NCBI GenBank assembly: GCA_965203095.1
Contig: OZ241877.1
Coordinates: forward strand, 1 to 64,000
Origin: Bdellovibrionales bacterium
GTDB taxonomy: Bacteria > Bdellovibrionota > Bdellovibrionia > Bdellovibrionales > UBA1609
DNA length: 64,000 nucleotides
Direction: 5' to 3'
Of this stretch, positions 3,512-49,594 are shown one piece after another. Position 1 is the stretch's first letter; each line of letters starts with the position of its first letter. A program made the translations under genes and the position numbers. The notes under the pieces were generated by a model, which had not been told where the DNA came from, ran no database searches, and worked only from the letters and a program-made list of their open reading frames with translations.

Positions 3512-3613
3512 TCCCTATTGTATATGACACAGGCTGTTAAGTCTGTTGTTAAAAGGCTGGGCTTCTCTTATAATCTAAAAGGTTTTGTTTGTTTTACAAC
3601 TTTGAGAATCTGC

Positions 3614-7025: not shown

Positions 7026-8441
7026 CTATTTTTTTTGGAGTTTTTCGCTTAGGTTTTGCAGTTCTTGAAATTTATTTTTGCTATTCTCTTTTGAGGGTTG
7101 AGGGTCATAAACATCCATAGCTTTTCTGGGCTGAACGGGGTTTTTAAACACAGCCTCTTCCTCCCCTGGAACAAAAGGAATACTTACATTGGTTTTGTCT
7201 GTTTGGTCATTGGAATCCACATTTTTGTCCTTCATTATTAGGGCTTCGTAAGCGGATAGTTTTTTCCCCTGATGAGTTCGCTCTTTTATTTTTTTTGTTC
7301 CCTGTCCAAAACCCGTTTTAACCACTTGATTGATAATTTGTTTCATACTCCAGGAAGGATAACAGGTTTTAACTAAAGCCGTGACTCCAGTGGCAAAGGC
7401 CGTTGCTTGTGAAGTTCCGGTCATTTTACCATATCTCCATCTGCCACTGGCCAAATTCCGAAAATTTTGACCACTGAACTGAGATTGAAGATAAAAGGGT
7501 GGGGGAAGGGTGGAGCGAATGTCTTTCCCTGGCCCCGACTGTGCGTTGGAGTTATCTAAATATTTATGTTGAATATAATTGCTGGAATCCAAAATTTCAT
7601 TTTTTTTGTTATGGGACTGAACAAACAGAATATTTTGTAAATTATAGTTGGCGGGGTAATAACCTAATTTTCTCTTTCCGACATTTTCACCTTCATTTCC
7701 CAAAGCGGCCACAAATATAATGTTTTTGTCTGCGGCTAAGGCAATATTGGCTTTTTCCTCTTCATTTTCGCCAGGGCCTCCACCGGAGTAGTTGATAATA
7801 TCCGCCCCATTATCCACAGCGTATTTTATAGCTCGAATGGTGTTGGCAATATTATTGTGGCTGTTAGCGGATTCATCATAATATTTGAGGCTCATAATGC
7901 GGGAATGTCCGGCAACCCCTATGGCCTCACAATTGGAATTTCCGGGGCCTTCAGCTGAAATGATGCCAGAGACATGGGTGCCGTGTCCGTGGCGATCTTG
8001 GATGTCATTACTTTTTTTAACAAAATTCCAACCATGAATATCATCTACGAAACCATTGCCATCATCATCTATGCCATTGTTAGGGATTTCTTTTTTGTTT
8101 TTCCACAGCTGATTTTTCAGGCAGGGGTGCCGGGCGTGAATCCCCGTATCTAAGACGGCAACAATCACATCTTTATTATATTGTTTTTTGTAGGCTTTCG
8201 CACATTTTTTATAATCTTGAGCTATTTTTTGCAGTCCAATACTTTTTAAAGGCCATTCCCTTTCAATGTATTTGAACATGGATATATTTTTGCCTTGTGT
8301 GAAATGGGGACTTCCTCCACCATCAATCAAACCCCTGCTTTGTGAGGCTGAAGGGGAGGTTTTTTGAACCGAATCTCTTTTTTTAAAGCCTGTAAAAGAA
8401 AGAATGAGAAAAAACGGCAAAACAAAAATGATCCTTTTCAT
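7026..8441 (-). CDS. Secreted subtilisin-like S8 serine peptidase
   Basis: Signal peptide; catalytic triad motifs VLDTG, HGHGTHVSG, GTSQAT; NGIDDDGNGFVDD loop. Confidence 0.93.
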   Translation of the reverse strand: MKRIIFVLPFFLILSFTGFKKRDSVQKTSPSASQSRGLIDGGGSPHFTQGKNISMFKYIEREWPLKSIGLQKIAQDYKKCAKAYKKQYNKDVIVAVLDTGIHARHPCLKNQLWKNKKEIPNNGIDDDGNGFVDDIHGWNFVKKSNDIQDRHGHGTHVSGIISAEGPGNSNCEAIGVAGHSRIMSLKYYDESANSHNNIANTIRAIKYAVDNGADIINYSGGGPGENEEEKANIALAADKNIIFVAALGNEGENVGKRKLGYYPANYNLQNILFVQSHNKKNEILDSSNYIQHKYLDNSNAQSGPGKDIRSTLPPPFYLQSQFSGQNFRNLASGRWRYGKMTGTSQATAFATGVTALVKTCYPSWSMKQIINQVVKTGFGQGTKKIKERTHQGKKLSAYEALIMKDKNVDSNDQTDKTNVSIPFVPGEEEAVFKNPVQPRKAMDVYDPQPSKENSKNKFQELQNLSEKLQKK

Positions 8442-8448
8442 ATATGCC

Positions 8449-8476
8449 TTTTCGGCAAAATAACTAATTTTATTTA
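8449..8476 (-). promoter_or_regulatory. Sigma28-type promoter TAAA-N16-GCCGAAAA, 7 nt before the S8 peptidase ATG
   Basis: Matches FliA consensus; same geometry recurs at other genes in the window. Confidence 0.6.
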
Positions 8477-8595
8477 ATATTTTTTATAAAATGCCTTAAA
8501 ATGGGAAGTTGGCAGGATTTCACCAGACCAAGAGAAGAAATTTAGGGAGATTATTAGGTTCTTTTCAGCTGATTTGACAGCACAAAAAAAATCCC

Positions 8596-8624
8596 TTGAC
8601 ATTACCGGCTAATGTCCATATACT
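8596..8624 (+). promoter_or_regulatory. Sigma70 promoter TTGACA-N17-TATACT
   Basis: ttgaca ttaccggctaatgtcca tatact; spacer similar to the promoters at 9423 and 18748. Confidence 0.8.
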
Positions 8625-8660
8625 GGATAAGGATAAACTACTAAACCATAAGGAGCTAAC

Positions 8661-8837
8661 ATGGATGGAATTGACACAGGAACAGTTATAGCAGTTGTGG
8701 CGACTTTAGCTTTTTTATTGACTGGAGTTAATACTCTATTAAAGCCGATCAGAAAAGACATAGCTAAGCTTGAAACAGGACAAGCTAAGCTTGAAGCCAA
8801 GATTGATACTCTTTTAGCACTAATCAAAAGCAAATAG
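8661..8837 (+). CDS. 58-aa TM + coiled-coil small protein (missed by ORF track)
   Basis: MDGIDTGTVIAVVATLAFLLTGVNTLLKPIRKDIAKLETGQAKLEAKIDTLLALIKSK; RBS aaggag; paralogous to 9496, 14734, 18783, 22013. Confidence 0.8.
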   Translation: MDGIDTGTVIAVVATLAFLLTGVNTLLKPIRKDIAKLETGQAKLEAKIDTLLALIKSK

Positions 8838-8990
8838 TCTCTTTATTCCTTTTATTTGCCTTTTCCCGGTGGCACAGTTTAGGGTTCTTTTTTTCTTACA
8901 TTTTGGTCCTTTTTGTGAAAAATTTACAAAAGACTATTTTTTTCTTTTTTTTTTCGGACAATCCTGCTATAAGCCCTATAAGCCTACACA

Positions 8991-9326
8991 ATGAAAATAC
9001 TATTGAGCCTTATTCTTTTAATGAGCTTGCCGGCTTTTGCTAACTGCCATGATGCTTTTGATCCTAAAAAAGAACAACTGGCAGACCTGATCAGCCTCGC
9101 GAATTATAAAGACTTTAAGAGGGGATATAAGCGGGGAGTTATGAAGACATTGAGAAATCTTGCGATATTAGGAGCGATAGGAGCGATAGGAGCAGGAGCG
9201 GGAGCGGGGTATTTAATAGGTCAAGAGGTGATCGATGCTTTGGATAAAAAAACAAATGATACTGGAAAGACAACAGAAAAAATAATTGAAGCATTGAACA
9301 CAGACAAGATTAACTGGGTGGATTAA
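8991..9326 (+). CDS. Secreted small protein with Gly-zipper-like helix (constant-signal family)
   Basis: Signal MKILLSLILLMSLPAFA near-identical to 18167; GAIGAIGAGAGAG; ends INWVD. Confidence 0.75.
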   Translation: MKILLSLILLMSLPAFANCHDAFDPKKEQLADLISLANYKDFKRGYKRGVMKTLRNLAILGAIGAIGAGAGAGYLIGQEVIDALDKKTNDTGKTTEKIIEALNTDKINWVD

Positions 9327-9366
9327 GCCTCAGAACCCTCTGTTTTTCTCTCTAATCTCTATCTAT
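9321..9366 (+). repeat. Conserved 3' box, copy 1
   Basis: gattaagc..c(a/t)(g/a)aaccctct(a/g)tttttctctctaatctctatctat; also at 18632 and 19395. Confidence 0.9.
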
Positions 9367-9495
9367 ATTCCAGCAAATAAGCTCTTATTCATGCGGGTTT
9401 TAGAGCACTTTAAGCAAAGCCCTTGACATTCCCGGCCAATGTTCCAATAATGGATGTATGAAGATATTGATTAACCTAAAAGAAAAGGAGTTATT

Positions 9496-9750
9496 ATGAC
9501 TATATTATGGACGGCTTTAAGTATTGTTGTGGGAACGGTTATTGCTGTTTGCTCTATTATAGGGATTCAGTTTGGAGTTATTTATTTTCTTTTGAATGCT
9601 AAAATAAACCCACTTGAGAAAAGAATAGAAGGGCTTGAGGCTGGGCAAGCTAATCTTGAGAAAGGGCAAGCTAATCTTGAGAAAGGGCAAAAGGATATTT
9701 TTAAACTATTAGGAAAAGTGTTGGATGTGAAAAAAGAGCTGGAAGGGTAA
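9496..9750 (+). CDS. TM + coiled-coil small protein
   Basis: Hydrophobic N-half, LEAGQANLEKGQANLEKGQ heptads; own promoter TTGACA-N17-AATAAT at 9423 and RBS aaggag. Confidence 0.8.
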   Translation: MTILWTALSIVVGTVIAVCSIIGIQFGVIYFLLNAKINPLEKRIEGLEAGQANLEKGQANLEKGQKDIFKLLGKVLDVKKELEG

Positions 9751-9800
9751 AAATAAAAAATAGTCAAAAAAGTTTCGTTTTATTTGCCTTTATATAAGGG

Positions 9801-10634
9801 CTACTCTACCGGACAGGCCAAATAGGCAATCCAAGTATCGCAAATATCCCCTTTTTTAGACTTTTTAAACTGGCCAGAACCTTCTCCATTTTTATCTGTC
9901 TGTTCCCAATAAATATGAATTTTTGAAAAACCAGCCGATCTCAAAGCATCTTGCAGTTCTGGAAGAGACCAAATTCTCCATTGGTAGGAAAAGGCTTTTT
10001 TTTGCTTTCTCTCCCCCTTCCTTTTAAAGTGAATGTAAAATTGGGCATAATGGCTTATGGGGTCAAAAGTGCTCTGTTCCCAATAGTAATTAAAATCATC
10101 GTGCTCCACCTTTTCCTCAGAAAGCCCATGGCAGTCCGGCCCGCCCACAGCATCAATAAGAAAAAGCCCTGGGCGGAAAAGGGCTTTTTTTATATTTTTA
10201 AAATATTGGACTAAGCTCTCCCTTTTCTTAAGGGTAAAATAAGAAAAGTTGCTGACTGTAATAAGCTCTGCCGAAGGCAGATGGGGCCTTAGGACATTTT
10301 TATTGACAATTTTCAGGCGAGACTTTTGGGAACTGTTGAGCTGGGACAGGTGGTTTTTTTTGCCATATTCTAAGGGATCTTTGTCCGAATCAATGACGAT
10401 GGCCTGATTCTGAGGATGATCTTTAACCCAGTGAAAGCTCACATAAAAAGATCCGCAAAAATCTTCACGAAAGATCCGAGGTTTTTTTTTGAAAAAATCT
10501 TTATAGACAGATTTAAAGAATCGAATGTCCTCTTTAGGGCTTTGAACTGAATTTTTATAATAAAAATACTTGTCAAAAGGAGGGAGTTTTGGCATAATGC
10601 GGGCTGTTTTATAATAGTTTGAAGTGAAATTCAA
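9801..10634 (-). CDS. Putative class I SAM-dependent methyltransferase
   Basis: SVQSP, REDFCG motif I, NFSYF, YYWEQ, WRIWSLPE; likely start at MPKLPP. Confidence 0.7.
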   Translation of the reverse strand: MNFTSNYYKTARIMPKLPPFDKYFYYKNSVQSPKEDIRFFKSVYKDFFKKKPRIFREDFCGSFYVSFHWVKDHPQNQAIVIDSDKDPLEYGKKNHLSQLNSSQKSRLKIVNKNVLRPHLPSAELITVSNFSYFTLKKRESLVQYFKNIKKALFRPGLFLIDAVGGPDCHGLSEEKVEHDDFNYYWEQSTFDPISHYAQFYIHFKRKGERKQKKAFSYQWRIWSLPELQDALRSAGFSKIHIYWEQTDKNGEGSGQFKKSKKGDICDTWIAYLACPVE

Positions 10635-10732
10635 GCTTTTGAGCTGGTTCTATATAAAAAAAACTGAGGCTATTGACAAAGCTCTGATTTTTATCTATAA
10701 AAAGCTCTTAACTCAACCTAAAGGAGAAAACT

Positions 10733-11002
10733 ATGAAAAAGTTATATGTGGGCAACTTGCCCTACAGTGTAAAAAAAGAAGATTTAGAAAAGATCTTTTC
10801 AGATTATGGCACTGTATCTGAGGCGATCCTTATCGAGGATAGGGACACCGGGCGATCTAAAGGTTTTGGTTTTGTGGAAATGGATACTCCCGAATCCGCC
10901 GATAAAGCCTTTAAAGCTTTAGACGGGAAGGATATCCAGGGTCGGAATATAAAAGTTAATCCCGCCCAACCAAGAGCCCCTCGCTCTAACAAAAAATTTT
11001 AA
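10733..11002 (+). CDS. RRM-domain RNA-binding protein
   Basis: RNP2 LYVGNL and RNP1 KGFGFVEM. Confidence 0.95.
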   Translation: MKKLYVGNLPYSVKKEDLEKIFSDYGTVSEAILIEDRDTGRSKGFGFVEMDTPESADKAFKALDGKDIQGRNIKVNPAQPRAPRSNKKF

Positions 11003-11003
11003 T

Positions 11004-11025
11004 AAGCCAAGTCACTTGGTTTTTT
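11004..11025 (+). terminator. Possible intrinsic terminator after the RRM gene
   Basis: agccaag-tca-cttggtt hairpin followed by a T run. Confidence 0.45.
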
Positions 11026-11029
11026 CAAA

Positions 11030-11746
11030 ATGAGAACAGGGAATCGAGCCAAAGATGAGCTGAGGCCATTAGTTATTAAGCCCAATGTCAACTGCTGGGC
11101 TGAAGGAAGTGTTGAAATATGTATGGGGAGAAGTCAGCTCTTATGCACGGCCAGCGTTTCCGACACAACCCCTAACTGGCTGAACAGCCCCGGACAGGGT
11201 TGGGTGACGGCAGAATACGCCATGCTTCCCAGAGCTGGAGATTTTAGGAATAGCCGTGAAAGGGGGACTCATAGCGGGCGATCACAGGAAATATCCCGTT
11301 TGATTGGTCGCAGTTTGAGAGCGGGTGTGGATCTGCAAAAATTAGGCGAGAGGCAAGTTTATGTGGATTGTGATGTTTTGCAGGCGGATGGCGGGACCCG
11401 CTCTGCCGGTGTCACCGGTGCTTTTGTGGCTTTGGCCTTGGCTTTAAAAAATTTAAAAGATCGTTCTATTATAAAGGATCTGCCTTTAAAAAGTTATATT
11501 TGTGCTGTAAGTGCAGGGCTGATGAATGAGTCGGCTTATTTGGATTTGGATTCTCAAGAAGATAAAGATTGCTCAGTAGATATGAATTTTGTTATGAATG
11601 AGCGTGGAGAGTTTATTGAAATCCAGGGAACGGCGGAAAAGCAAAGCTGGACTAAAGATCAATTAGGACTTTTAATGGATATGGCCCAAAAATCCAGCCT
11701 TCTTCTGATTGATAAACAAAGGGAAATTGTAGGAGAATTTTTCTGA
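11030..11746 (+). CDS. rph: Ribonuclease PH
   Basis: GWVTAEYAMLPRA, GRSQEISRLIGRSLR, DCDVLQADGGTR, EIQGTAE. Confidence 0.96.
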   Translation: MRTGNRAKDELRPLVIKPNVNCWAEGSVEICMGRSQLLCTASVSDTTPNWLNSPGQGWVTAEYAMLPRAGDFRNSRERGTHSGRSQEISRLIGRSLRAGVDLQKLGERQVYVDCDVLQADGGTRSAGVTGAFVALALALKNLKDRSIIKDLPLKSYICAVSAGLMNESAYLDLDSQEDKDCSVDMNFVMNERGEFIEIQGTAEKQSWTKDQLGLLMDMAQKSSLLLIDKQREIVGEFF

Positions 11747-11915
11747 ATAGACGCTTTGCGTTAAAAACTCATCAAAGCTTTTTTCCTTAAATTATTGATT
11801 TTACCTTTTAATTTTTAAAAAAATAAATTTTTGAATAAAAAACCTTGTCTGACTTTTTTTTGAGGATTAAGTTAAGGAGAAGAACAGTAAAACCAACTTT
11901 TAGGAGTAATTAATT

Positions 11916-12500
11916 ATGAAAAATTTTAATTTAATCGCCATTTTGTTCTTTTCCTTGTTTTTTATTTCCTGTGAAGAGGAAAGCACCAGCCCTTCTGCTC
12001 CTTCTATTCAGGCATCTAAAGGTGTAGCAGGTGATAATCAGGTTCCCGCTCCTGAACATGTGCCTATTATGACGGAAAAAGCTCCATCAGTAGAACAACC
12101 TATAGTCACAGCAGAAATGACGGAAGAGGCTCAAGAACCGGTCACAGGTGAGGAGGGGACAGCCGTTCCCACTCCTGCAGACCCCGCTCCACAAGTCACT
12201 ACTGTTGAAGAAACAGCAGTCCCATCTAATAAGGTTTTTTGTGTAAAAGAGGGAGAGGCGGATATTGTTTTTTCTGTTTACAACTATGAACCCGGCAGTA
12301 AAGCACGATTATGTGAAATCTTTGATTCTCGATCTTCATCAGCTCCGCGTTGGTATGCCACACAAGATGCCACTTTTTGTAATTGGCTTATGGAAAATTG
12401 TTTAATAGGCTATAACAGTGCTCAATGCAATGATCCTACCAAGGATTTCAGAGTTCCTGCCTTACCAGAGGGATGGACATGCTCTGCGGGGGAGGAGTAA
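11916..12500 (+). CDS. Hypothetical lipoprotein with Pro/Thr/Glu linker and Cys-rich C-domain
   Basis: Lipobox FISC, RBS aggag, six Cys in C-terminal domain. Confidence 0.7.
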   Translation: MKNFNLIAILFFSLFFISCEEESTSPSAPSIQASKGVAGDNQVPAPEHVPIMTEKAPSVEQPIVTAEMTEEAQEPVTGEEGTAVPTPADPAPQVTTVEETAVPSNKVFCVKEGEADIVFSVYNYEPGSKARLCEIFDSRSSSAPRWYATQDATFCNWLMENCLIGYNSAQCNDPTKDFRVPALPEGWTCSAGEE

Positions 12501-12501
12501 A

Positions 12502-12720
12502 ATGAAAAACTTTTTAAAAAATCGGAGGGCCTTAGGGCTTACTTTTTTTATACTGATCTATTCCTCTTGTAGCACAACAGAACCAACACCTCATTATTTT
12601 TCTGAATCTGAAAAAATAAAATATGAAAGTAGTAAAAAGACTCTTCAAGAGCTGTGCAAAAAATATGGCTACAAATATAGACAAGGTAAGTGTGTCAGTT
12701 TTTATATTTCAGCTCCTTGA
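12502..12720 (+). CDS. Small hypothetical lipoprotein
   Basis: Start MKNFLKN after RBS ggaggag; lipobox YSSC. Confidence 0.55.
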   Translation: MKNFLKNRRALGLTFFILIYSSCSTTEPTPHYFSESEKIKYESSKKTLQELCKKYGYKYRQGKCVSFYISAP

Positions 12721-12782
12721 TAGATTTTCTAAATGTAACATAATATATCTTATCGGCATTTTGATATAAGAGACAGATTGTT

Positions 12783-14480
12783 TTATCGGGGCCATCTGGG
12801 GCAAGGGTTTTTGTTTTCCCTCAAAAATTTGTTGGTGTATTGATCCCATAAATTCACCATGGATAAGCCCGATACTTCCCCACTTCGCCCTAAAACCGCC
12901 TCTGTATGAGCCAAGTTAGAAACAGTCCATTTTAGCTGTCTTCCTGTTGTTTTTCCGGATCGGCTTCGTTTATTTCCTGGTGAGAATTTTTCTACAAAAT
13001 AAAATTCCCTCAATTCCTCCCAAGAGGCTTTATCTTTTTTGTATTTCCATCGGTCAGAGGATTTGACCAGATATCGAGTATCTTCCAAAGTGCGTCTGTC
13101 TCTTACAGCTTGAATCGCCCTCACAACCCACATCGCCCCACTGTTATAAGCCGAAACCCCCCTTCTCCAACCGTCTTTTTCATCTTCCGGCAGGCTTTGC
13201 CAAGAGGGGCATTGCCCTGTTTTTAAAGGCTGAGGATTCACTTTGTTATAGGAGTCAGACACTAAAATTTTTACCGCTGAATTGAGGTTATTTATAGGGT
13301 TTTTAAGGCATTTAAGATTGCTTGCAGTTCCCATTTCATGAGCATGGCCTTTAAGATTGCGACACTGATGGACTCGAGAATTTACTTGAAAAAGGCCCGC
13401 ACTTTCCTCTCGCTCATTACTGGCTGTTGCAGGGCAATTTCCTGCACTTTCAATACTCATCATGGCCATCATGATCTCTGGAGGCACCCCCTTTTTACAG
13501 GATTCACAGTAAGCTTTTTTAAAAAAATCTTTAAACTCACCTGGGCAGGTCCGGTTGAAGTTCTGAATAATGAGCTTCAAAGATGTTTTAGGGGAGCAAA
13601 TTTGAGAAATAAGTATTGTATTTTTTATTTTTCCTATAACTTTTTGCCTCACTTCCTTAAGTTTTGTTTTAATTTTGCTTAAAAACCCCTCTTTAACTAA
13701 TAAGCTCAAAGCAGAGCTATCTTTTGTGCATTCCGCACAAAAACCCGCTTCGGTATCCTCTATTCCTTCAAGGGAGAGGCACTCCTCCTCCTCGCCTCCC
13801 TTTTTCGGCTCTTCTCGTGTGGCGGGAACAGCATAGCCATCTTGTGCAGTCTCAAAACCTCCATTCACCGGTGTTATATTCTCTTCAGATACCAAATGAA
13901 CAGATCCTGTTTGCACGGTCTGTTTTCCCGAAGAATCTGTATCCACAATTTGCATCCGCCCCGGATCTGTTCTACTTACAAAAATTGCACGATTCCTGGA
14001 AGAAGAAGTATCACTTGCAGAAAGATCTTCAGCAGGTGCAGGTGGGCTACTTTGCCCTATATCAAGTCTTCCTCTGGTTTTAGCCGGCTTTGCCCTGGGT
14101 GGTGTTGGAGGAGTTGTGGGAGAGACTTTACCCTCAGCCCTTCGTGAAGAGGCTCGGCCTCTCCTATATCTTCTGGGGGGGGTCCAAGGCTCCCAATCGT
14201 CATCCTCTATCTCTTCTGTTTCAGCACTGGTAGGTAAAAAGGCTGGTAAAAAATATTGGAATTGAGGGATAGCCGAATCTGTTGGATAAACAGCTAAAGG
14301 GAGAGCTTGCCCCGACCACTGCCCCATACAAGAGGGATCTCCAGGGTATTCACAAAGAGGCACAACAGGAGCACCGGCAGGAATCCATGTGGGAGTTCCA
14401 TTAAAATTAGGGTTAAACATAATGTCTGCACCATTCACTGCCCAACTGAAAAAAATAAAACTAAAAATTTTTATAAGCAT
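12783..14480 (-). CDS. Secreted lytic transglycosylase (SLT domain) with low-complexity N-region
   Basis: MAMMSIESAG, GLFQV and AYNSG SLT motifs; signal peptide. Confidence 0.85.
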   Translation of the reverse strand: MLIKIFSFIFFSWAVNGADIMFNPNFNGTPTWIPAGAPVVPLCEYPGDPSCMGQWSGQALPLAVYPTDSAIPQFQYFLPAFLPTSAETEEIEDDDWEPWTPPRRYRRGRASSRRAEGKVSPTTPPTPPRAKPAKTRGRLDIGQSSPPAPAEDLSASDTSSSRNRAIFVSRTDPGRMQIVDTDSSGKQTVQTGSVHLVSEENITPVNGGFETAQDGYAVPATREEPKKGGEEEECLSLEGIEDTEAGFCAECTKDSSALSLLVKEGFLSKIKTKLKEVRQKVIGKIKNTILISQICSPKTSLKLIIQNFNRTCPGEFKDFFKKAYCESCKKGVPPEIMMAMMSIESAGNCPATASNEREESAGLFQVNSRVHQCRNLKGHAHEMGTASNLKCLKNPINNLNSAVKILVSDSYNKVNPQPLKTGQCPSWQSLPEDEKDGWRRGVSAYNSGAMWVVRAIQAVRDRRTLEDTRYLVKSSDRWKYKKDKASWEELREFYFVEKFSPGNKRSRSGKTTGRQLKWTVSNLAHTEAVLGRSGEVSGLSMVNLWDQYTNKFLRENKNPCPRWPR

Positions 14481-14488
14481 ATATAACT

Positions 14489-14516
14489 TTATCGGTATTT
14501 TCCTAAGTTTATTTTA
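14489..14516 (-). promoter_or_regulatory. Sigma28-type promoter TAAA-N16-ACCGATAA, 8 nt before the SLT ATG
   Basis: Direct motif match on the minus strand; no SD before the ATG. Confidence 0.6.
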
Positions 14517-14733
14517 AAAAACAAAATTCAGTTTAAAAATCCCTTTGGCATTATCAGGGGCATTATCAGGACTTTTAGCTTGGCCAATCCATCTTTTGTA
14601 AAATTATAGCATAAGCCATCCCATTCAAGATAGAAAAAAACTCCTGTTTTTTGAGCACTTTCAAATAAATCTTGACTTTTTGTTTTAAGCAATCAATAAT
14701 GGATATATAAAATAATTACCAGAGAGGTTAAAT

Positions 14734-15111
14734 ATGTCTGAAACAATGAACCCGGCCACAAAGGCAGGAATGGAAATAGCTGATAAGGCCCAATGGATAA
14801 ATATGGACACAGTAAGAGGACTTGTTCCATTGTTTATTTTTGGGATTTTTTTTGTCGCTGTTTTAACTTATATTAATTCCAATTTAGACTCAAAATTAGA
14901 TGCAAGAATAAACCCTATTGACAAAAAAATAACTAAGATTGAAAAAAGAATGGACAGTTTTGAGATAAGAATGGACAGCCTTGAAAAAAGAATGGACAGT
15001 TTTGAGATAAGAATGGACAGCCTTGAAAAAAGAATGGAAAATCTTGAGGCTGGGCAGGTTAAAATCTTAACTATCCTTGAGAAAATCAAGCCTCAAAGCT
15101 CTAAAAAATAA
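14734..15111 (+). CDS. TM + coiled-coil small protein with 21-bp heptad repeats
   Basis: MSETMNPAT start shared with 22013; (I/L)EKRMDS/FEIRMDS repeats; LEAGQ; promoter TTGACT-N17-AATAAT at 14672. Confidence 0.8.
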   Translation: MSETMNPATKAGMEIADKAQWINMDTVRGLVPLFIFGIFFVAVLTYINSNLDSKLDARINPIDKKITKIEKRMDSFEIRMDSLEKRMDSFEIRMDSLEKRMENLEAGQVKILTILEKIKPQSSKK

Positions 15112-15171
15112 AGGCTGGAGTCCCCAAGCAAAAAAAGGGGGATCTTACTGTTCGTAAAGGTTGGCCCATCA

Positions 15172-16257
15172 CTACTTGGCCGGCATTTTGGCCGACAAAA
15201 GCTTTTGATGAGGCATATCTAAAGTTCTGGTGGGGAAAGCAAATTTCAGATCCATTTTTTTAGCCAATTTAAGAATTTCCAAAAAAATAGCTTGTTTTTG
15301 TAAAAGCTCCGAATCCCAGTCACTCACTTTCAAAAAAAAGTTCAGCAAAATGTTCAAACTATGAGGGCCATAGCCAGAAAAATAACACTGATAATAATCC
15401 TTGCGGGTTTGAGGATTAGATTGAATGATTTTTTTTATCCCCTCCACAAAGGCAGAAATTTTTTCTGGAGGGCTATCATAAGTGAGGTTCAATGTGATTC
15501 TTGTCCTCCTGGACCGCCTTTTACCCAAATTATCGATAATGGAATCCGCTATTACTGAGTTGGGAATGGTGAGAAGGGAATCATAAAATGTTTTTATTTT
15601 TGTAGAGCGAAAACCGATATCCTCCACTGTGCCTTCCACCTTATTACAAACAATCCAGTCCCCTACAGAAAAGGGCTTGTCCATAATCACTGTAAAACCA
15701 CCAAAAAAATGGCTTAAAGTCTCCTTAGCGGCCAAAGCAATGGCCACACCACCTAAACCCAATCCCGCGAGCAAAGAGGTCACATTCACCCCAGAGTTTT
15801 GAAGGAAAAGCAGGATAATGACAATGCTGGAAAAAACCTTCAAAATTCTTTTAGAATAAGGCAAAAGATGTTTTGTAATGGAGTCGGAAGAGCGAGCCTG
15901 AGGTCCTAAATCTGGCCGGGACTTTAATCTGAGAGCAATAAACTTTTCTAAAATATCTAAAAATTGCCAGCAAATAAGAATCAGGCTGTAAGATAAAAGC
16001 ACCCTCAAAGCAGAGGACAAAAAAACTTGCCATCGGTCTTCTACAGAAATAAACAAAAAACCAATATGGCAAACAGTCCATAAAATAAGGATAGAGATAG
16101 CACTTGGAGAAATATTTTGAAGAGCGGGTTGGAGTTTTTTTGGTAAACTTTTCACCAGCTTTTTTAAGAATAATATGATGATGGGCCTGGAGTATCTACT
16201 TACAAAAACTCCAGTAAAAACAACAATTAAGATAAAAAATATAGGATGGTTTGTCAT
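15172..16257 (-). CDS. MscS family mechanosensitive channel
   Basis: LLAGLGLGGVAIALAAKETL, DKPFSVGDWI, GTVEDIGFRST, FAFPT. Confidence 0.93.
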   Translation of the reverse strand: MTNHPIFFILIVVFTGVFVSRYSRPIIILFLKKLVKSLPKKLQPALQNISPSAISILILWTVCHIGFLFISVEDRWQVFLSSALRVLLSYSLILICWQFLDILEKFIALRLKSRPDLGPQARSSDSITKHLLPYSKRILKVFSSIVIILLFLQNSGVNVTSLLAGLGLGGVAIALAAKETLSHFFGGFTVIMDKPFSVGDWIVCNKVEGTVEDIGFRSTKIKTFYDSLLTIPNSVIADSIIDNLGKRRSRRTRITLNLTYDSPPEKISAFVEGIKKIIQSNPQTRKDYYQCYFSGYGPHSLNILLNFFLKVSDWDSELLQKQAIFLEILKLAKKMDLKFAFPTRTLDMPHQKLLSAKMPAK

Positions 16258-16266
16258 TTTTTATTT

Positions 16267-17220
16267 TTAAGCAAGAAATCCCTTTTCCTTCATCCAGCTA
16301 TCATTTAAAAATTTGCTCATGTAATTTTGAATGCCATCGGGCAAAATAATTACACAGTTTTGCCCTTTTTTTAGCCGTCGGGCCTCTTTAAGGCCGGCAA
16401 AAACAGCTGAACCGGAAGAACCACCGCACAAAATGCCTTCTTGACGGATAAGCTCTCTACTTGTGGCAAAGGATTCTGCATCTTTAGTTTTAACCCATTT
16501 ATCTATTAAAGAGCGATCTAAAACTTCGGGAACAAAATCATAACCTATCCCCTCCACTTCATAGGGATGAATAGGCCCTTTCCCTGCCAATAAAGAACCT
16601 TCAGGATCTACGCCAATAATTTCACAATCTGGACAAACTGGCTTTATTTTTTGAGATAGCCCGGTCAAAGTCCCGCCCGTGCCGGCCCCAGCGACAAGCA
16701 TATCCACCTGCTTATTCAGGTCGGACAAGATCTCTAAAGCCGTCCCCTCGTAATGAGCCATATAATTGTCCGGGTTAGCATATTGATCTAAAATAAAAGA
16801 TTGAGGAATTTCCCTTTGTAGCTTTTTGGCCTTTTCAATATGGCTTTCTGGATCGTCAAAAGCCAAGTGAGCTGGGGTCCTAACAATTTTTGCCCCTAAA
16901 GCCTTTAAAATGATCTCCTTTTCCTGACTCATCTTATCGGGGAGAACAATAATTACCTTATAGCCCAAAACGGCCCCGGCTATAGCAATGCCAATACCTG
17001 TGTTCCCACTGGTGGGTTCAATCAAAGTGTCCCCTGGCCGAATATCCCCTCTTTGTTCCGCCTTTTTTAACATATTCCAGCCAATGCGATCCTTTACCGA
17101 TCCACCGGGGTTAAAAAACTCACATTTTACATAAACAGTGGCCGAAAGGCCCTCAGTCATCTTGTTGAGTTTGACTAAAGGGCTATTTCCAATAGTTTCT
17201 AAAATATTTTCAAAAATCAT
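16267..17220 (-). CDS. PLP-dependent cystathionine beta-synthase / cysteine synthase family enzyme
   Basis: CEFFNPGGSVKDR, EPTSGNTG, GTGGT, YEVEGIGYDF (CBS-like). Confidence 0.9.
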   Translation of the reverse strand: MIFENILETIGNSPLVKLNKMTEGLSATVYVKCEFFNPGGSVKDRIGWNMLKKAEQRGDIRPGDTLIEPTSGNTGIGIAIAGAVLGYKVIIVLPDKMSQEKEIILKALGAKIVRTPAHLAFDDPESHIEKAKKLQREIPQSFILDQYANPDNYMAHYEGTALEILSDLNKQVDMLVAGAGTGGTLTGLSQKIKPVCPDCEIIGVDPEGSLLAGKGPIHPYEVEGIGYDFVPEVLDRSLIDKWVKTKDAESFATSRELIRQEGILCGGSSGSAVFAGLKEARRLKKGQNCVIILPDGIQNYMSKFLNDSWMKEKGFLA

Positions 17221-17701
17221 AGTGTTTTTCCCTCAGAAAACCAGAAACTCAAATAAAAAAGGCAACTATCCTCATACTTTTGCTTTTTATATTGATGAAA
17301 TCCAACAAATTCAAGCATTTTAATCCTCCTTGAAAAAGACGGCCCAAAAAATCTCTGGCTTTTTAGCTCCCGACAAAACAGTCATTCCTGTAAATGTTCA
17401 TTATTTCGCTGACAGAATCATTTTTTAGCCTTTTCACAAATAGCATTCATTTGAACAGGGGGGCTCTTCCCACAAAAATCCGTTAAAAAAACAGATTTTA
17501 GCTGTTTTTTGCCTGATCTTGCCATTTTTTTCTAAAATTTTTTAAACAAAAACCCGATAAGTAAGTATTTACTATGAAGAAAAATAGACCCTTGGAAAGC
17601 TTGCTAAAAAGCTCCCCAAGCTTTTTGGCTTCCTTGAAAACGGGAATCCAGAAATCCCAATCTTTTCCGCAAAAACTTATTGAAAAGCCTTATTCCTTAA
17701 C

Positions 17702-17774
17702 TTTTTGCCCAAAGGCCATTTCATTTCGGGACGGCAATACCTTGAACCCTCATGAAACGCCCTTTGGGCAAAAA
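17702..17774 (+). mobile_element. Core-hairpin repeat element copy (outer ends decayed)
   Basis: Core ttcgggacggcaataccttgaaccctc (17725-17751) inside stem tttgcccaaagg..cctttgggcaaa. Confidence 0.85.
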
Positions 17775-17992
17775 TCATTAAAAAACCATTCCCTTAAAAC
17801 TCGTCATTATAAAAATGGAAGTCCTTATCCATTCAGATCGCTCCCCGCAAAAACAACCAACGGGAATCTTGCCCCCAGGGATCTCCGAGTCGCAGTTTCA
17901 AAACAATCCCCCCCCCTAAAAACGCTGTAAATTCAATAGTTTAAATCATTTTAAACACAAAAAAAACTTTTCTTTTAAACAAGGTTCATGGT

Positions 17993-18084
17993 GACTTAAG
18001 CTGGCTTTTATAGACTCAAGAAATCGTGACGAAATTAAGGCCAGCGGAGCATTGAACATAGCCTTGATTATCTGGGTGGATTGA
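17993..18084 (+). pseudogene. 3' remnant of a constant-tail family gene
   Basis: 18010-18084 reads IDSRNRDEIKASGALNIALIIWVD*, homologous to the ends of 18167 and 8991; no start codon. Confidence 0.7.
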
Positions 18085-18166
18085 GCTTTTGCCCCTTGTG
18101 TGAAAAATTTACAAAATGCTTTAAAAGACTTTATTTTCCCGGACAATCCTGCTATAACCAACCACA

Positions 18167-18637
18167 ATGAAAATACTATTAAGCCTTGTTCTTTTAATGA
18201 GCTTGCCGGCTTTTGCCAGCTCTCAATGCGGTGATGTCCCTCTTGCCCTGCAAGATTTGCTAATAGACTTGAGAGGGAAAAACTTGGAAGGGGAAAACTT
18301 GAGAAGGGCAGAGTTGTCACGGGCAGACTTGACAGAGGCAGTCTTAACAAGGGCAGACTTAACACGGGCAGACTTGGTTTTGGCGAACTTGACAAGGGCA
18401 GATTTGACAGAGGCAGTCTTGATAAAGGTAGACTTGAGTTTTGCAGACTTGAGAGGAGCAGATTTGAGAAGAGCGGACTTAAGTTTTGCAGACTTAAGCT
18501 GTTCAAAAAACTTAGAATTGGCAGACTTGAGAGAGGCGAACTTGAGCGGTGCTCTTATAGACTCAAAATATCGTGACATGATTATGAAAAGCGGAGCAAA
18601 GAACATAGGCGGAATTACCTGGTTCTTTGGGGATTAA
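18167..18637 (+). CDS. Secreted pentapeptide-repeat protein (constant-signal family)
   Basis: A(D/N)LxX repeats; signal MKILLSLVLLMSLPAFA. Confidence 0.9.
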   Translation: MKILLSLVLLMSLPAFASSQCGDVPLALQDLLIDLRGKNLEGENLRRAELSRADLTEAVLTRADLTRADLVLANLTRADLTEAVLIKVDLSFADLRGADLRRADLSFADLSCSKNLELADLREANLSGALIDSKYRDMIMKSGAKNIGGITWFFGD

Positions 18638-18677
18638 GCTCTAAAACCCTCTATTTTTCTCTCTAATCTCTATCTAT
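18632..18677 (+). repeat. Conserved 3' box, copy 2
   Basis: gattaagctctaaaaccctctatttttctctctaatctctatctat. Confidence 0.9.
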
Positions 18678-18747
18678 CCCCCAAAAAAAGCCCTCAGCAG
18701 GCAAAAAGCCTATTCTCGTTGATATTTGAAGCACTTTCAAAAAAAGC

Positions 18748-18776
18748 TTGACATTCCCGGCTAATGGCCATATAAT
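18748..18776 (+). promoter_or_regulatory. Consensus sigma70 promoter TTGACA-N17-TATAAT, leaderless geometry
   Basis: ATG at 18783 lies 6 nt after TATAAT, no SD. Confidence 0.85.
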
Positions 18777-18782
18777 GGCTTT

Positions 18783-19010
18783 ATGAAAGTTTTTACTCCA
18801 TTATTTCAAGCTGTTATTGCTTTCGTGGCTGTTTTGACGGGATTAGGGTTTGTCTTTAACCTTCTTTTAGCTCCGGTTAAAAGAGACATAGAAAAACTTG
18901 AGGCTGGACAGGCTAAACTTGAGGCTGGACAGGCTGAAATTAAACAGTTGTTTTATGAGTTTAAAAACCATTCTCATGATCAGCCAAAGCAAGCCAGCAA
19001 AAACAAATAG
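18783..19010 (+). CDS. TM + coiled-coil small protein
   Basis: Hydrophobic N-terminus, LEAGQAKLEAGQAEIKQ; 3' flank aaatagtctctttat shared with the 8661 copy. Confidence 0.8.
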   Translation: MKVFTPLFQAVIAFVAVLTGLGFVFNLLLAPVKRDIEKLEAGQAKLEAGQAEIKQLFYEFKNHSHDQPKQASKNK

Positions 19011-19400
19011 TCTCTTTATATCCTTAACCATCCCAGAAGACTTTAGGTCTTCTATCTCTATTCATAATCTTCGGGCCTGCAATGAAATAGAAAAAGAAAA
19101 CTACTCTTACTTAAAAGATCATTTTGTTTTGGAAGGAACTCAAACTGCCATCATTCCTTTTCTTATTGGAGCCGGAGGATCGCTTTTAGCTGCCGGAGGT
19201 ATTGGTTGCCTTATAGGAAACCGTATGAGATTAGACGGGGTGTTATTGACCGGAGTGTTAGGCATACCTTTAACTATATGGTGAGTGGTGCTCTTCCTTA
19301 TCCGTTTATGGTTATGCCAGTGTCTTTTGCATTAGGAGCTTTTGCCGGAGCCGTGATTTGCATGGCGGAAGATTTTGATATAATCCATTTTTTTGATTAA
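19011..19400 (+). pseudogene. Frameshifted Gly-rich membrane protein ending in the family 3' box
   Basis: Two overlapping hydrophobic ORFs join by a 1-nt shift at actatatggtg (~19278); ends IIHFFD then 3' box; no clear start or signal peptide. Confidence 0.5.
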
Positions 19401-19442
19401 GCCCCTCAGAACCCTCTATTTTTCTCTCTAATCTCTATCTAT
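19395..19442 (+). repeat. Conserved 3' box, copy 3
   Basis: gattaagcccctcagaaccctctatttttctctctaatctctatctat. Confidence 0.9.
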
Positions 19443-19668
19443 TCTTCCTCTTTTTTTAGACGACAGGCAGACGACAAACCCACACTGGCTCTAAGAGACA
19501 GCCCGCCAACCGCTCCGCAGAGGGCAGACGACAGGCAGACGACATAAACTGGAGTTTCGAGCAAAAGGAGGGGGCTATCTTCTGGTTTTTTTTCAATTTG
19601 TTTTCATTGTCTGTTCAATAGGTTTTTCTTCATTGCCCTAAAAAATATTTTTTGAGATATTTTAAATC

Positions 19669-19896
19669 ATGACATTACTATCCCGCTTGCCTAAAGGGCG
19701 AATGGCTTTAATTACAGGCTTTTCCGCCAATCAACACATTTTCCTCCGTTTTATGGAGATGGGCCTAGGGGCCAATGAGCGGATCCAAATGTTAGGCCAA
19801 CTGCCCTTTGGGGGCAATTTAGTTATTCTTTCCTATTATGGGAAATACACTTTAAGAAAAACAACGGCTCAGATGATTCAAGTCAAAGAGTTATAA
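19669..19896 (+). CDS. feoA: Ferrous iron transport protein A
   Basis: RFMEMGL..., PFGG, TLRK motifs; upstream of feoB. Confidence 0.85.
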   Translation: MTLLSRLPKGRMALITGFSANQHIFLRFMEMGLGANERIQMLGQLPFGGNLVILSYYGKYTLRKTTAQMIQVKEL

Positions 19897-20006
19897 GCCA
19901 TTACCCGCTGATAAGGAGGCTTATTCTCAAAGGGAAAAACCTCTTTCATAAGCCAACTCAGCAGGGGGCAATGGTTTCTCAGGCAGATCGCTTCGCGGTA
20001 AAAATT

Positions 20007-21893
20007 ATGAGCCAAAAAACAAAAAAATTTTTTCTTGTTGGCCCACCCAATAGTGGGAAAACCAGCCTTTTTAATTGGCTGACGGGTTTTCAAAATCCTG
20101 TTGTCAATTACCCAGGATCTACAGCCCTTTTTTCTGAAGGGAATATTTTAAAAAAATACCAACTGCCGGGAATAGTTGTAGATAGCCCCGGTTTTTACAG
20201 CCTATTCCCTCAATCAGAAAATGAACAACAGGTTCAAAAACTTCTTTTTAAAAATAAAGATCCGCGAATTTTAATTCTGACTTTAGATGTCAGCAAGTTG
20301 GAGATTCAGCTCCCTTTGTTTTTTCAACTTAAAGAAGCAGGTTTCTCCCCTGTTTTGGCTTTAACTATGTGGGATATAAAGCCATCCCCTATAAATTTAT
20401 CCCGCCTTAAAAAGCTCTTAAAGACCCCAGTGATTCCCATCAAAGGTTTGACGGGAGAGGGGGTGATGGATCTGATAGAAATCCTCAAAAACTGGATTCC
20501 GGAACAAAAACCTAAACCTATAAAGGCTTGGGATCTCAACAAGTTTAAAGAGATTTCCCGCCAGACCCAAAATTTGATTTCCCCATCTTCTAAAAAAGAT
20601 ATGGAAAAAGAAAAAAAACAAAGTTTTTTTGCTGACCACCGATGGGACAAGCTCTTTCTTCATCCTCAAAAAGGCTTGCTTTTATTTGCCGGGATTATGT
20701 TGGGGCTGTTCTCCTCCATTTTCTGGCTGGCCCAACCCTTTATGGAGTTTATAGATAAAGCCTTTTCCCTCTTAATAGATCAAAGCTTTAAGAGTTTGGC
20801 AATTTATCCTCAAATAGCGGATTTTGTATCTCATGGCCTGTTGGCCAGTTTAGCTGGAGTCTTGATTTTTGTCCCGCAAATTTTTATTCTTTTTGCCGGC
20901 ATTTCCCTTTTAGAGGACACAGGATATTTGGCCCGTGCTGTGGCCCTTATGGATGGTCCTTTTTCAAAAATAGGTTTAAGTGGCCGATCCTTTGTCCCTT
21001 TTTTGTCCGGCTATGCCTGTGCTGTTCCCTCTGTTTTGCTGGCCAGAAACCTTGATAGCCAAAAAGAGAGATGGATGAATTTTTTAGCCATTCCTTTTAT
21101 GACTTGTTCTGCCCGCCTCCCCGTCTATATTCTGCTCCTCAGTTTTTTGTTTTATAGTCAATCCGCCTTTTTGCCAGCTCTCACTTTGGGCGGGATTTAT
21201 ATGGCCAGCTTTTTTTTAGGAATCTCAGTCGTATGGCTTTTAAATCTCTTTTTTAAAAAACAAACAAAAGAGGCTTTTTTGTTGGATCTCCCCTTATATC
21301 GCCCTCCAATTTTAAAGAAAATTTTGCGGAATGCCTACATGCAGAGCCGACATTATATTGTTAAAGCCGGGCCAACTATTTTTTTTGTCGCCTTAGTGAT
21401 TTGGCTATTATGTCATTTCCCCGGACAGAGTGATTTGCCCCCTGCTGAAAGAATCCAACAGAGTTATGCGGGGCAAATCGGCCAATGGATAGAGCCAGCC
21501 TTTAAAGCTATGGGAGTGGATTGGAGAGTGGGGACAGCCCTAATAGCGGCCTTTGCGGCAAGAGAGGTTTTTGTTCCCGCTTTGGCTTTGGTTTTTAGCC
21601 TGGCACCAGAAGGCAATGCCCCTTTAAAACAATCCCTTATAGAAAGCATGCAAAAGGCTCAGCATGCGGATGGTTCTTTGATTTTTACATTCAGCAGTGT
21701 GACCGCATTGGTGGTTTTTTTTATATTTTCCCTTCAGTGCCTTTCCACAACGGCAGTTGTTTATAAAGAGAGCGGTTCCTGGAGGCTGGCCCTGTTTCAG
21801 TTTTTGGCTTTAAATGGAGGAGCTTATCTTATGGCGGTTTGCACTTATCAGGGCCTGGAATGGCTTTTGTCCAACCCATTTTTCGGCTCATAA
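20007..21893 (+). CDS. feoB: Ferrous iron transport protein B
   Basis: GPPNSGKT, NYPGST, DSPG, LEDTGYLAR, PFMTCSARLPVY, AAREVFV. Confidence 0.95.
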   Translation: MSQKTKKFFLVGPPNSGKTSLFNWLTGFQNPVVNYPGSTALFSEGNILKKYQLPGIVVDSPGFYSLFPQSENEQQVQKLLFKNKDPRILILTLDVSKLEIQLPLFFQLKEAGFSPVLALTMWDIKPSPINLSRLKKLLKTPVIPIKGLTGEGVMDLIEILKNWIPEQKPKPIKAWDLNKFKEISRQTQNLISPSSKKDMEKEKKQSFFADHRWDKLFLHPQKGLLLFAGIMLGLFSSIFWLAQPFMEFIDKAFSLLIDQSFKSLAIYPQIADFVSHGLLASLAGVLIFVPQIFILFAGISLLEDTGYLARAVALMDGPFSKIGLSGRSFVPFLSGYACAVPSVLLARNLDSQKERWMNFLAIPFMTCSARLPVYILLLSFLFYSQSAFLPALTLGGIYMASFFLGISVVWLLNLFFKKQTKEAFLLDLPLYRPPILKKILRNAYMQSRHYIVKAGPTIFFVALVIWLLCHFPGQSDLPPAERIQQSYAGQIGQWIEPAFKAMGVDWRVGTALIAAFAAREVFVPALALVFSLAPEGNAPLKQSLIESMQKAQHADGSLIFTFSSVTALVVFFIFSLQCLSTTAVVYKESGSWRLALFQFLALNGGAYLMAVCTYQGLEWLLSNPFFGS

Positions 21894-22012
21894 GCATTTT
21901 GATTTTCTCAATACCGGAAGGCTTTTTGCTTTCCCTACCAAAAAATCTACCCCCTCTACTATAAGACCAAGCCAAATCATAAAAAAATGAGGGTCAATTT
22001 TGCGGGAAAAAC

Positions 22013-22378
22013 TTATTTTGCTCGCTTAATCGGATTTTGAAAATTATTTTTTAGATCGATTAACATCTGTTTTATTTCAGCTTGGCCAGCCTCTAAATTA
22101 TCCATTCTTTTCTCAATTTTATCCACTTTCATCTCAATTTTATCCATTCTTATCTCAATCTTAGTTATTCTTTTATCAATAGGGTCTATTTTTGCATCCA
22201 AAAGAACATAAACCAGTCCAAACAGAACGGCCAAAAATCCAATGATAAAAGCCCCAGCTGAGAACAATATGGAAAAAGCTTTTACTGTTTCCGCACTCAT
22301 TCCCATACTCACTCCTTTAGCCTTATTATTAGCCATTCCCAATTGTGCATTTGTGGCCGGGTTTATTGTTTCAGACAT
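22013..22378 (-). CDS. TM + coiled-coil small protein
   Basis: MSETINPAT start, TM helix, DKIE heptads, LEAGQAEIKQ; RBS aaggag. Confidence 0.8.
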   Translation of the reverse strand: MSETINPATNAQLGMANNKAKGVSMGMSAETVKAFSILFSAGAFIIGFLAVLFGLVYVLLDAKIDPIDKRITKIEIRMDKIEMKVDKIEKRMDNLEAGQAEIKQMLIDLKNNFQNPIKRAK

Positions 22379-22475
22379 ATCGACTCCTTAATGGTTTTGA
22401 GCTTATTATACCCACAGTCACTTTGGGGGGCAACATAAAAAGTGAGTTTATGGATAGGTTCATGGATATTACTTA

Positions 22476-22650
22476 GTTGTCCGTGAAAAACCTTTGTTTT
22501 TTAACTTTTTTTGTCCAAAGGACCATTCCATTTCGGGACGGCAATACCTTGGACCATCACCGGACGGCCTTTAGGCAAAAGTGATTGAAAAGTCTGCCCC
22601 TGTAAAAGCAGAGAATGAGAAGGTCTTACTGAGACTTTTTCACGGACGAC
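22476..22650 (+). mobile_element. MITE-like core-hairpin element (175 bp)
   Basis: TIRs gttgtccgtgaaaaa / tttttcacggacgac; flanks tactta / tattta; core at 22532-22558. Confidence 0.9.
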
Positions 22651-22827
22651 TATTTAAAAACCTTGAAAATTATAAAAATCCCTATCTGATGTGGATTTTT
22701 GCGGGCTTTTTTTATCAATCCTGTCCAAAAAATGAAAAAAATCCCTTTTTATCACTTTTTTTTTGCAAAAGCTCAACAGATATGATATAAAAACCTCTCA
22801 ATACTTAAAATAAAAAAGGAGTGAATT

Positions 22828-23319
22828 ATGGATTTATTGAAAGTGGGCGATCGGGTGGTGTATCCTGGTCATGGTGTGGGCCAGGTGACTTCTATTGAAG
22901 ACAAAAACATTATGGGGAGCCGGCTGACTTTTTACTCTATGGAAATTATGGAGTCAGGGACTAAAATCATGGTGCCTAAAAACCGTTTAAAAAATGCAGG
23001 AGTTCGCCCTGTAGCCTCTAAAAAACAGGCTCAAGAAGTGATGGGTTTTATCAATGAGTTGAAAGAGGGGAATAAAAATTATTATTCCAATGGGAAAAAT
23101 TGGCAAAAAAGGCAACAGTCTTATATGGATAAAATTAAAACAGGATCCATTTATGAAATAGCCCAAGTGATATGCGATCTCAACCAAATCAAAAAAGCCA
23201 AAGAGCTAAGTTATGGAGAAAAACGAATGATGGACAAAGCCAAAAACATGCTTTACTCTGAATTTTCGCTCACAATGGATAAGAAGGAGCTAAAAGGCTT
23301 ATCTAACCAAAGGATTTGA
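22828..23319 (+). CDS. carD: CarD family transcriptional regulator
   Basis: VGDRVVYPGHGVG, IMVP, GVRPV, KELSYGEK. Confidence 0.92.
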   Translation: MDLLKVGDRVVYPGHGVGQVTSIEDKNIMGSRLTFYSMEIMESGTKIMVPKNRLKNAGVRPVASKKQAQEVMGFINELKEGNKNYYSNGKNWQKRQQSYMDKIKTGSIYEIAQVICDLNQIKKAKELSYGEKRMMDKAKNMLYSEFSLTMDKKELKGLSNQRI

Positions 23320-42640: not shown

Positions 42641-42653
42641 TGGAACCCCGGGT

Positions 42654-43211: not shown

Positions 43212-43236
43212 TTTAACTCCTTATTAAAACCCGTGT

Positions 43237-43848: not shown

Positions 43849-44007
43849 TTTAACTCCTTATTTTTAGTTTGTGTCCATAAATACCCTTTATAGTTTAATG
43901 CATAATGGATTCCTCTATTCAGGCCATTATAACATAAGAATTTTAGATGGGCTATAGTTTTTTGCCGGTATCCGGCATTTTTGTTCAGCTGGCGAAAAAT
44001 CTTATTT

Positions 44008-49486: not shown

Positions 49487-49594
49487 TATTTAGAATGAGG
49501 AAAATTTGTGGAAAAGAAGAGTCCCACAAAAATAAAAGAGCTTGACATTCCCAATACTTCAAAGAATCTTTAAAATCCCAAAAAAGGAGGGGCT

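Follow-up and report, generated by a model that had tools for sequence, protein, structure and literature searches.

Gene families that join constant parts to variable ones have been described in several bacteria. In Anaplasma, msp2 is presented in the available part of PMC3338850 as dispersed copies with conserved flanks, a variable middle and mosaics from multiple donors, with one expression site, silent donors and homologous hypervariable regions. C-terminal displacement in Rhs proteins, as set out in a portion of PMC2935791, joins unrelated payloads to a conserved part by homologous recombination, with orphan fragments in arrays. The vpma, vsp and vlp lipoproteins of Mycoplasma are, in the accessible sections of PMC2268961, variable multigene families with common 5′ regions, and for vpma and vsp an adjacent tyrosine recombinase and a single promoter drive switching. 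The subject here is a family of small cassette genes seen at two loci, A and B, in a 64,000-nucleotide stretch of DNA (positions 1 to 64,000 of contig OZ241877.1, assembly GCA_965203095.1, from a Bdellovibrionales bacterium), hereafter the window. These loci are probably two sites of a genome-specific small-gene family for predicted secreted proteins, in which exchangeable segments lie between two anchors and are likely moved by RecA-type ectopic recombination or gene conversion. The system is real, genome-wide and lineage-specific, with no dedicated machinery or partner pairs shown.

The genome (G000) measures 1.80 Mb in two contigs at 38% GC and belongs to a reduced Bdellovibrio-like bacterium; reduced Bdellovibrionota are reported as sponge symbionts in the part of PMC9944714 consulted, which serves as context only. 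Cassette names such as 108348, 478442, 1436845 and 1680360 are genome positions, C1 is a contig of G000, and other positions refer to the window. An earlier note, made from the window sequence, had proposed a polymorphic secreted-protein system whose middles are exchanged between constant flanks, possibly as effector/partner pairs. When profiles made from the window copies were run over the whole genome, the search for the signal-peptide DNA and the 3′ box took the family far beyond two loci, to 45 copies of the upstream block (UP), 30 of the signal block (SIG), 38 of the tail and 36 of the box, besides 24 promoter blocks (PCC) of coiled-coil (CC) genes. The elements follow one another on a single strand as UP-SIG-payload-TAIL-BOX, with tandem arrays at C1 184.8-188.3, 475.8-479.2 and 962-978 kb, and the window holds two of 22 genome loci, single-box loci counted. 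Predicted secretion, constant flanks, unrelated payloads and recombination were all supported; the pairing of effectors with partners was not.

Payloads between the constant flanks of the 30 SIG copies comprise 22 pentapeptide-repeat proteins (PRPs), four Gly-zipper (GZ) proteins, three Cys/transmembrane (TM) proteins and one truncated copy. The earlier note had held that its idea would fall if payloads were alignable paralogues; this is what the 22 PRPs are, the unrelated classes remain, and crossovers also lie inside payloads. UP, tail or box also serve genes whose signal peptides differ, among them further PRPs and a beta-rich class. Pentapeptide units occur in 41 open reading frames (ORFs) or fragments of G000. 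The payload of gene 18167 matches PF00805 (E 4.5e-26, 90.5 bits against a cut-off of 20.2), a model with 141 matches across G000 and, at one common threshold, 79 in G000 against 0-12 in nine congeners. NCBIfam equivalog cut-offs for PRPs of the Qnr, MfpA, HetL and PipB types were not reached (best 64 bits against 125-500). The pentapeptide-repeat family has an established beta-helix fold, and the PRP payloads are predicted to be exported beta-helix binders.

The GZ and TM payloads gave no Pfam, NCBIfam or PADLOC matches and no usable ESM Atlas hit, and a low-confidence structure model of the TM payload, from four sequences, had a pLDDT of 44.5; both classes are possibly membrane-inserting helices. 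The same signal stands before new variants of GZ and TM in two further proteins, encoded on other short contigs. The family is confined in its distribution: a 191-nt tail-UP-SIG query matched none of nine congeners and, among 60 relatives, gave nothing in 59 and one weak 43-nt hit. With single proteins as queries, 100 relatives yielded no match for TM and one, a weak one, for GZ (E 9e-5), and a TM alignment run against 108 family genomes returned G135, a member of another genus, plus one weak hit. No description of the family was found in the literature searched, supplements lying outside that search. The idea, formed by eye, that the PRP N-terminal helix derives from the TM class gained no support from BLASTP.

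Evidence for exchange comes from the mosaic structure of the copies. Exact-match painting of the 30 genes gave patchworks with switch points in promoter, signal, repeats and tail. Cassette 1680360 is identical to 478442 at +48..+300 and then switches, while 977348 and 963310 each hold blocks from at least three donors. Four Rpn-UP-SIG blocks of about 1.35 kb (Rpn being PF04754, TIGR01784) are 94-96% identical, the match ending at +42 to +74 in five of six pairs, and are followed by GZ in one case and by different PRPs in three. GZ and TM genes lose their homology to PRP genes anywhere from +46 to +85, at no single base. The 5′ and 3′ distances of 18 PRP cassettes are uncorrelated (Mantel r -0.07). 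On a tree of the 5′ modules, which covered 29 of the 30 copies (all but 1257751), the four GZ rows require four changes and the three TM rows three, so that they are no more clustered than with shuffled labels; a branch with 100/97 support unites TM 108348 with PRP 1436845.

RecA, MutS, MutL and Rho are present in the genome, which has only three tyrosine recombinases, none heading an array. Scattered breakpoints and the lack of a linked recombinase make RecA-type conversion between constant anchors likely. Building on the observed anchors, their order, the payload classes, the mosaicism and the deletions, the proposed explanation has two constant anchors, palindrome-promoter-signal peptide and tail-box, alternating with exchangeable segments. 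The first type of segment would run in frame from signal to tail or box and carry mostly pentapeptide repeats, less often GZ, Cys/TM or beta-rich bodies. The second, from box to the next promoter, would be empty or occupied by a CC gene and its promoter, by Rpn or by some other small secreted gene, an arrangement that would explain the alternation without any partner function. Short-anchor homologous recombination, presumably RecA-dependent, would drive both whole-payload replacement and segmental mosaics, and insertion sequences and island duplications may aid dispersal; IS3, DDE transposase and resolvase genes flank some arrays. Two other accounts of the mosaicism were set aside. Mismatch-repair loss was rejected on finding MutS and MutL domains in long open frames in five of five genomes, and dRS3-like hairpins as recombination marks on finding one of 53 pattern matches near a cassette, against 5% expected.

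At locus A the order is CC, UP-SIG-GZ-TAIL-BOX, CC:
8587..8631, + strand: PCC promoter block, sigma-70-type, TTGACA-17-TATACT
8661..8837, + strand: CC gene, 58 aa, N-terminal hydrophobic helix and short heptad coiled coil
8911..8975, + strand: UP, 15-bp palindrome (8914-8928) and promoter-like segment with the CCGGACAAT spacer motif common to PCC
8991..9326, + strand: cassette gene, 111 aa, with signal block (8991-9041), Gly-zipper payload and PRP-family tail in frame
9288..9330, + strand: TAIL anchor with the D-stop junction at its end; 38 genome copies
9331..9368, + strand: BOX, a 3′ element rich in C and poor in G, with weak structure; candidate Rho-utilisation site
9416..9458, + strand: PCC promoter block
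9496..9750, + strand: CC gene, 84 aa

Locus B is laid out as follows:
17505..17982, + strand: remnant of an S74-chaperone fibre gene, comprising its upstream region and first codons (deleted island head)
18004..18088, + strand: orphan C-terminal remnant of a PRP gene (TAIL), UP directly after
18096..18159, + strand: UP, palindrome at 18099-18113
18167..18637, + strand: cassette gene, 156 aa, with signal block, pentapeptide-repeat payload (PF00805) and diverged tail
18642..18677, + strand: BOX
18739..18783, + strand: PCC promoter block, TTGACA-17-TATAAT; ATG 6 nt past the -10 hexamer (likely leaderless)
18783..19010, + strand: CC gene, 75 aa, of a type common to other Bdellovibrionales
19026..19400, + strand: payload gene of the Cys/TM class, frameshifted and 5′-deleted, lacking promoter, signal and first third
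19407..19442, + strand: BOX

Every feature listed in the earlier note was recovered in place. Genes 8991 and 18167 do share upstream DNA (8911-8975 and 18096-18159) and the predicted 17-residue signal MKILLSL(I/V)LLMSLPAFA (70 nt, 89% identical); boxes stand 3′ of the payload genes at 9331, 18642 and 19407, the orphan tail remnant near 18004-18088, and the TM/coiled-coil genes said to alternate with payload genes are CC genes at 8661, 9496 and 18783, whose sigma-70 promoters are near consensus (TTGACA-17-TATAAT-like). Two points needed amendment. The tails of 8991 and 18167, described as related, are so only at a distance, that of 18167 having diverged such that the TAIL profile missed it and BLAST with the remnant detected it. 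The frameshifted hydrophobic ORF (19395) has its frameshift, but is a 5′-deleted member of the Cys/TM payload class.

The PRP-family tail on the GZ gene of locus A is a direct sign of chimerism. Locus B is a deletion derivative of a larger fibre-PRP island. Positions 17505-17982 are fused to the last ~27 codons of a PRP gene, and 18763-19219 are colinear with C1 108823-107925 minus about 420 nt, a loss that left the TM gene without promoter, signal and first third. Contigs from short reads match 18128-18584, 18794-19069 and 19096-19433 with zero differences, the second of these crossing the deletion junction between the CC gene and the TM remnant, and a second sample has the 18167 payload with four differences in 379 nt.

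Each anchor has features that suggest a function. The 15-bp near-palindrome of UP occurs 38 times in G000, against 2-4 strand-hits in shuffles, seven times in the congener G007 and 0-5 times in each of 39 other genomes. As a few unrelated genes for predicted secreted proteins also have it upstream, it is likely to be an operator, for now a candidate, which would co-regulate the genes behind it. A second small predicted secreted family (~330-350 aa) has the palindrome upstream at C1 94270, 134606 and 603418. The promoter in UP was recognised by eye, and a consensus scan did not call it; its spacer motif is common to UP and CC promoters. On inspection the signal looks like a cleaved type I signal rather than that of a lipoprotein, and export would pass through Sec. 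The box has a C/G ratio of 12 and is weakly structured (0 to -8.5 kcal/mol, 12 of 36 copies folded), which, with Rho present in the genome, makes it a plausible Rho-utilisation site at which transcription may terminate. The products are predicted to act as a repertoire of variable binders where the cell meets its prey or host.

Parallel families were found in relatives. G007, within the genus, has 23 DNA matches to a promoter-leader block of its own, four of them pilin genes and one a promoter only, and the leader is similar to the beginning of type IV pilin genes. It precedes payloads of which about ten are Sel1-like, two ankyrin and one hexapeptide-repeat, besides others, the repeat types being taken from sequence reading and sub-cut-off NCBIfam hits, and the 15-bp palindrome lies on several of these loci. 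At G007 loci L066, L065, L062 and L090-L111 the pilin-derived leader lacks the GFSLVE cleavage motif and is joined to Sel1-like, ankyrin, hexapeptide or unknown domains. In G135 a TM homologue (25% aa identity, E 1e-6) adjoins a PRP gene, and the leader of this homologue shares 80% identity with one PRP leader of G135 and 59-69% with the five others, but only 44-53% with G000 TM leaders, which are themselves 80-93% identical to G000 PRP leaders. Leaders therefore follow genome, not payload. Two other TM homologues have lipoprotein-like starts. These comparisons argue for cross-family leader exchange in three lineages (G000, G007 and G135). A broader proposal is speculative and rather unlikely: that Bdellovibrionales with reduced genomes have more than once arrived at a portable 'export socket', its operator-promoter-signal block derived each time from another parent gene (from a type IV pilin in G007), and that unrelated repeat or membrane-active payloads are actively reshuffled behind it as a selected diversity system for prey or host recognition.

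Several observations weigh against exchange as a maintained source of diversity. Variants of the signal block are 23 non-synonymous to seven synonymous, so that its constancy need not mean selection on the peptide, and many cassette copies are broken by frameshifts or survive as remnants. The 5′ tree is weak, with three of 24 inner branches well supported, which leaves the number of exchanges unfixed, and homogenisation of flanks is not always distinguishable from replacement of payloads. Ongoing switching was not seen in the assembled contigs of two samples from one study. An alternative is that the modules spread neutrally, by duplication and deletion in a repeat-rich reduced genome, and that their variability has no selected role. 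The broken copies, the near-neutral variant ratio, the abundance of other repeat families (one with 94 BLAST hits) and the DNA modules going unmatched in nearly all relatives all fit such an expansion. It is nevertheless doubtful: the frame from signal to tail stays open in most PRP copies despite changes in repeat number, families with different leaders have arisen in parallel in G007 and G135, and the palindrome is kept upstream in both G000 and G007.

The CC genes bear on the idea of a polymorphic toxin system, in which each payload would be a toxin neutralised by the next CC gene. G000 has 23 CC genes, 11 of them directly 3′ of a box. The association with payloads suggested in the earlier note is there, 14 of the 23 lying within 1.5 kb of a cassette element (1.3 expected, at most 8 in 10,000 draws), but only in part, since nine lie more than 2.5 kb away. 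This enrichment, the hydrophobic Gly-rich helices of the GZ and TM payloads and the likeness of orphan tails to rhs tip arrays, as these appear in the consulted part of PMC2935791, would suit a toxin system. The suggested effector/partner pairs did not hold up, however: the 30 signal cassettes are followed by a CC promoter in only eight cases, by another UP in 11 and by other DNA in 11, and CC subtype does not track payload class. CC genes are mutually homologous while the payloads are unrelated, a CC gene occurs in only three of 19 G007 leader loci, and no toxin or defence family matched above its cut-off. Rpn and other genes that use the box-to-promoter slot are likewise enriched near cassettes, and in relatives genes of this CC type have housekeeping neighbours and no payload gene beside them. 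A toxin system is accordingly very unlikely, and the gene arrangements suggest that the CC genes are likely passengers, not cognate antidote partners. The CC family itself is wider, with 30 matches in G007 and 12 in G009 of the same genus, presence in five of nine congeners and none in 31 more distant genomes. Seven of 12 loci matched by the 18783 protein are from Bdellovibrionales metagenome-assembled genomes, and a CC profile found 945 representatives in a large library, nine of which were looked up and had no names. In the stand-alone CC genes 14734-15111 and 22013-22378, 21-nt tandem repeats vary the length of the coiled coil. A weak TNT match of ORF 17574-17930 (E 0.004, below cut-off) was put down to chance, as this ORF overlies non-coding repeats.

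The regularity of the junctions could instead point to a dedicated site-specific cassette system, integron-like or Xer1/shufflon-like, acting at the D-stop junction or the 15-bp palindrome. Most tails and boxes do join at one short D-stop junction, a box following 21 of 38 tails and UP directly following 15. Gaps to the next promoter are near-fixed, at 7-8 nt from the tail and 29-35 nt from the box when the slot is empty; occupied slots between box and next UP hold mostly CC or other small genes (262-732 nt) or Rpn (1346-1430 nt). One box, with part of the CC-promoter leader, lies directly 3′ of a XerD-like gene (C1 511937). Yet two of the three tyrosine recombinases were scanned and proved XerD-like and phage-integrase-like, the integron model scored 32 bits against a cut-off of 265 for the one recombinase tested, and no Rfam match exceeded threshold within 8000-23000. 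With a promoter block on each cassette, no single expression site and scattered breakpoints, such a system is highly improbable. Finally, it is extremely unlikely that the mosaics are assembly artefacts of a metagenome-assembled genome, since the zero-difference short-read contigs, the second sample and the parallel families in other assemblies outweigh the lack of any listed contig covering a whole locus or, in four of four runs with some records filtered, the middle of the 8991 payload. Contig joints were not used as evidence of switching, as paralogues explain them.

Other observations concern genes and repeats around the cassettes. Near-identical Rpn/YhgA genes stand divergent to a cassette promoter at C1 65402, 1437150, 1470541 and 1680067, and Rpn has 16 tblastn hits in G000. 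Six fibre genes head PRP arrays at C1 111-113.7k, 188.8-191.4k, 472.8-475.3k, 978.5-981.1k, 1223-1225.7k and 1229-1231k. They have a prepilin-like start, as read from the sequence, and a C-terminal S74 chaperone; five have 815-890 codons and one is partial and broken, and the 111k copy seems frameshifted close to its start. At C1 1224-1233.4k, a DDE transposase is surrounded by a direct duplication of 5.3 kb that comprises a fibre tail, two PRP genes, a beta-class stub and a murG-like start. A dispersed repeat of about 100 nt, unrelated to cassettes, overlaps 17598-17800 in locus B (copy at 17702-17799) and recurs in the window at 22509, 44140, 49390, 53476, 61943 and 62135, with 94 BLAST hits genome-wide in both orientations. 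It is possibly a MITE or REP-type element, and with three of the 94 hits near cassettes it has no tie to them. Further long direct or inverted repeats lie at 42644-43862, at 49293-49491 with 61848-62046, and at 22498-22656 (300 nt at 96%, 99 nt at 96% and 199 nt at 94%). A 39-nt tandem repeat at 3937-4326, encoding an acidic 13-mer, lies towards the N-terminus of a large ORF (3518-6058), by eye a PilQ-type secretin.

The exchange of segments between anchors offers a view of how a small-genome relative of predators may gain a large, variable set of predicted secreted proteins, by placing a promoter-plus-signal block onto unrelated bodies and then mixing them. The same design with different DNA in two relatives suggests a recurring route to export and shared regulation for pentapeptide, Sel1-like and ankyrin repertoires. 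Further products of the analysis are a candidate operator, two payload families without prior characterisation and a coiled-coil family expanded in the lineage.

Compared with known systems, the family fell outside polymorphic toxins, integrons and shufflons on the features tested. The PRPs of the cassettes resemble PF00805 proteins in having A(D/N)LXX repeats in 22 of 30 payloads, and lie far below the cut-offs for Qnr, MfpA, HetL and PipB; they have a predicted signal peptide and are expanded to about 40 ORFs. Neither the adjacent recombinase nor the single promoter reported for vpma and vsp was seen in G000, where the likeness lies in the common 5′ regions. Rhs displacement is matched in the joining of unrelated payloads and in the orphan fragments, but here there is no Rhs core and no payload-specific immunity gene, anchors stand on both sides, and the genes have 85-270 codons. 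As in msp2, mosaic copies from multiple donors lie between conserved flanks; unlike msp2, each cassette has its own promoter block (45 UP for 30 SIG) rather than a single expression site supplied by promoterless donors, and not all payloads are homologous. Conserved-end, variable-end repertoires are also described, in the available part of PMC10769870, for the S74 fibres of the mosaic adhesive trimer (MAT) of Bdellovibrio. The fibre tails that head arrays in G000 start with a prepilin-like motif and are neighbours of the cassettes, not parts of them.

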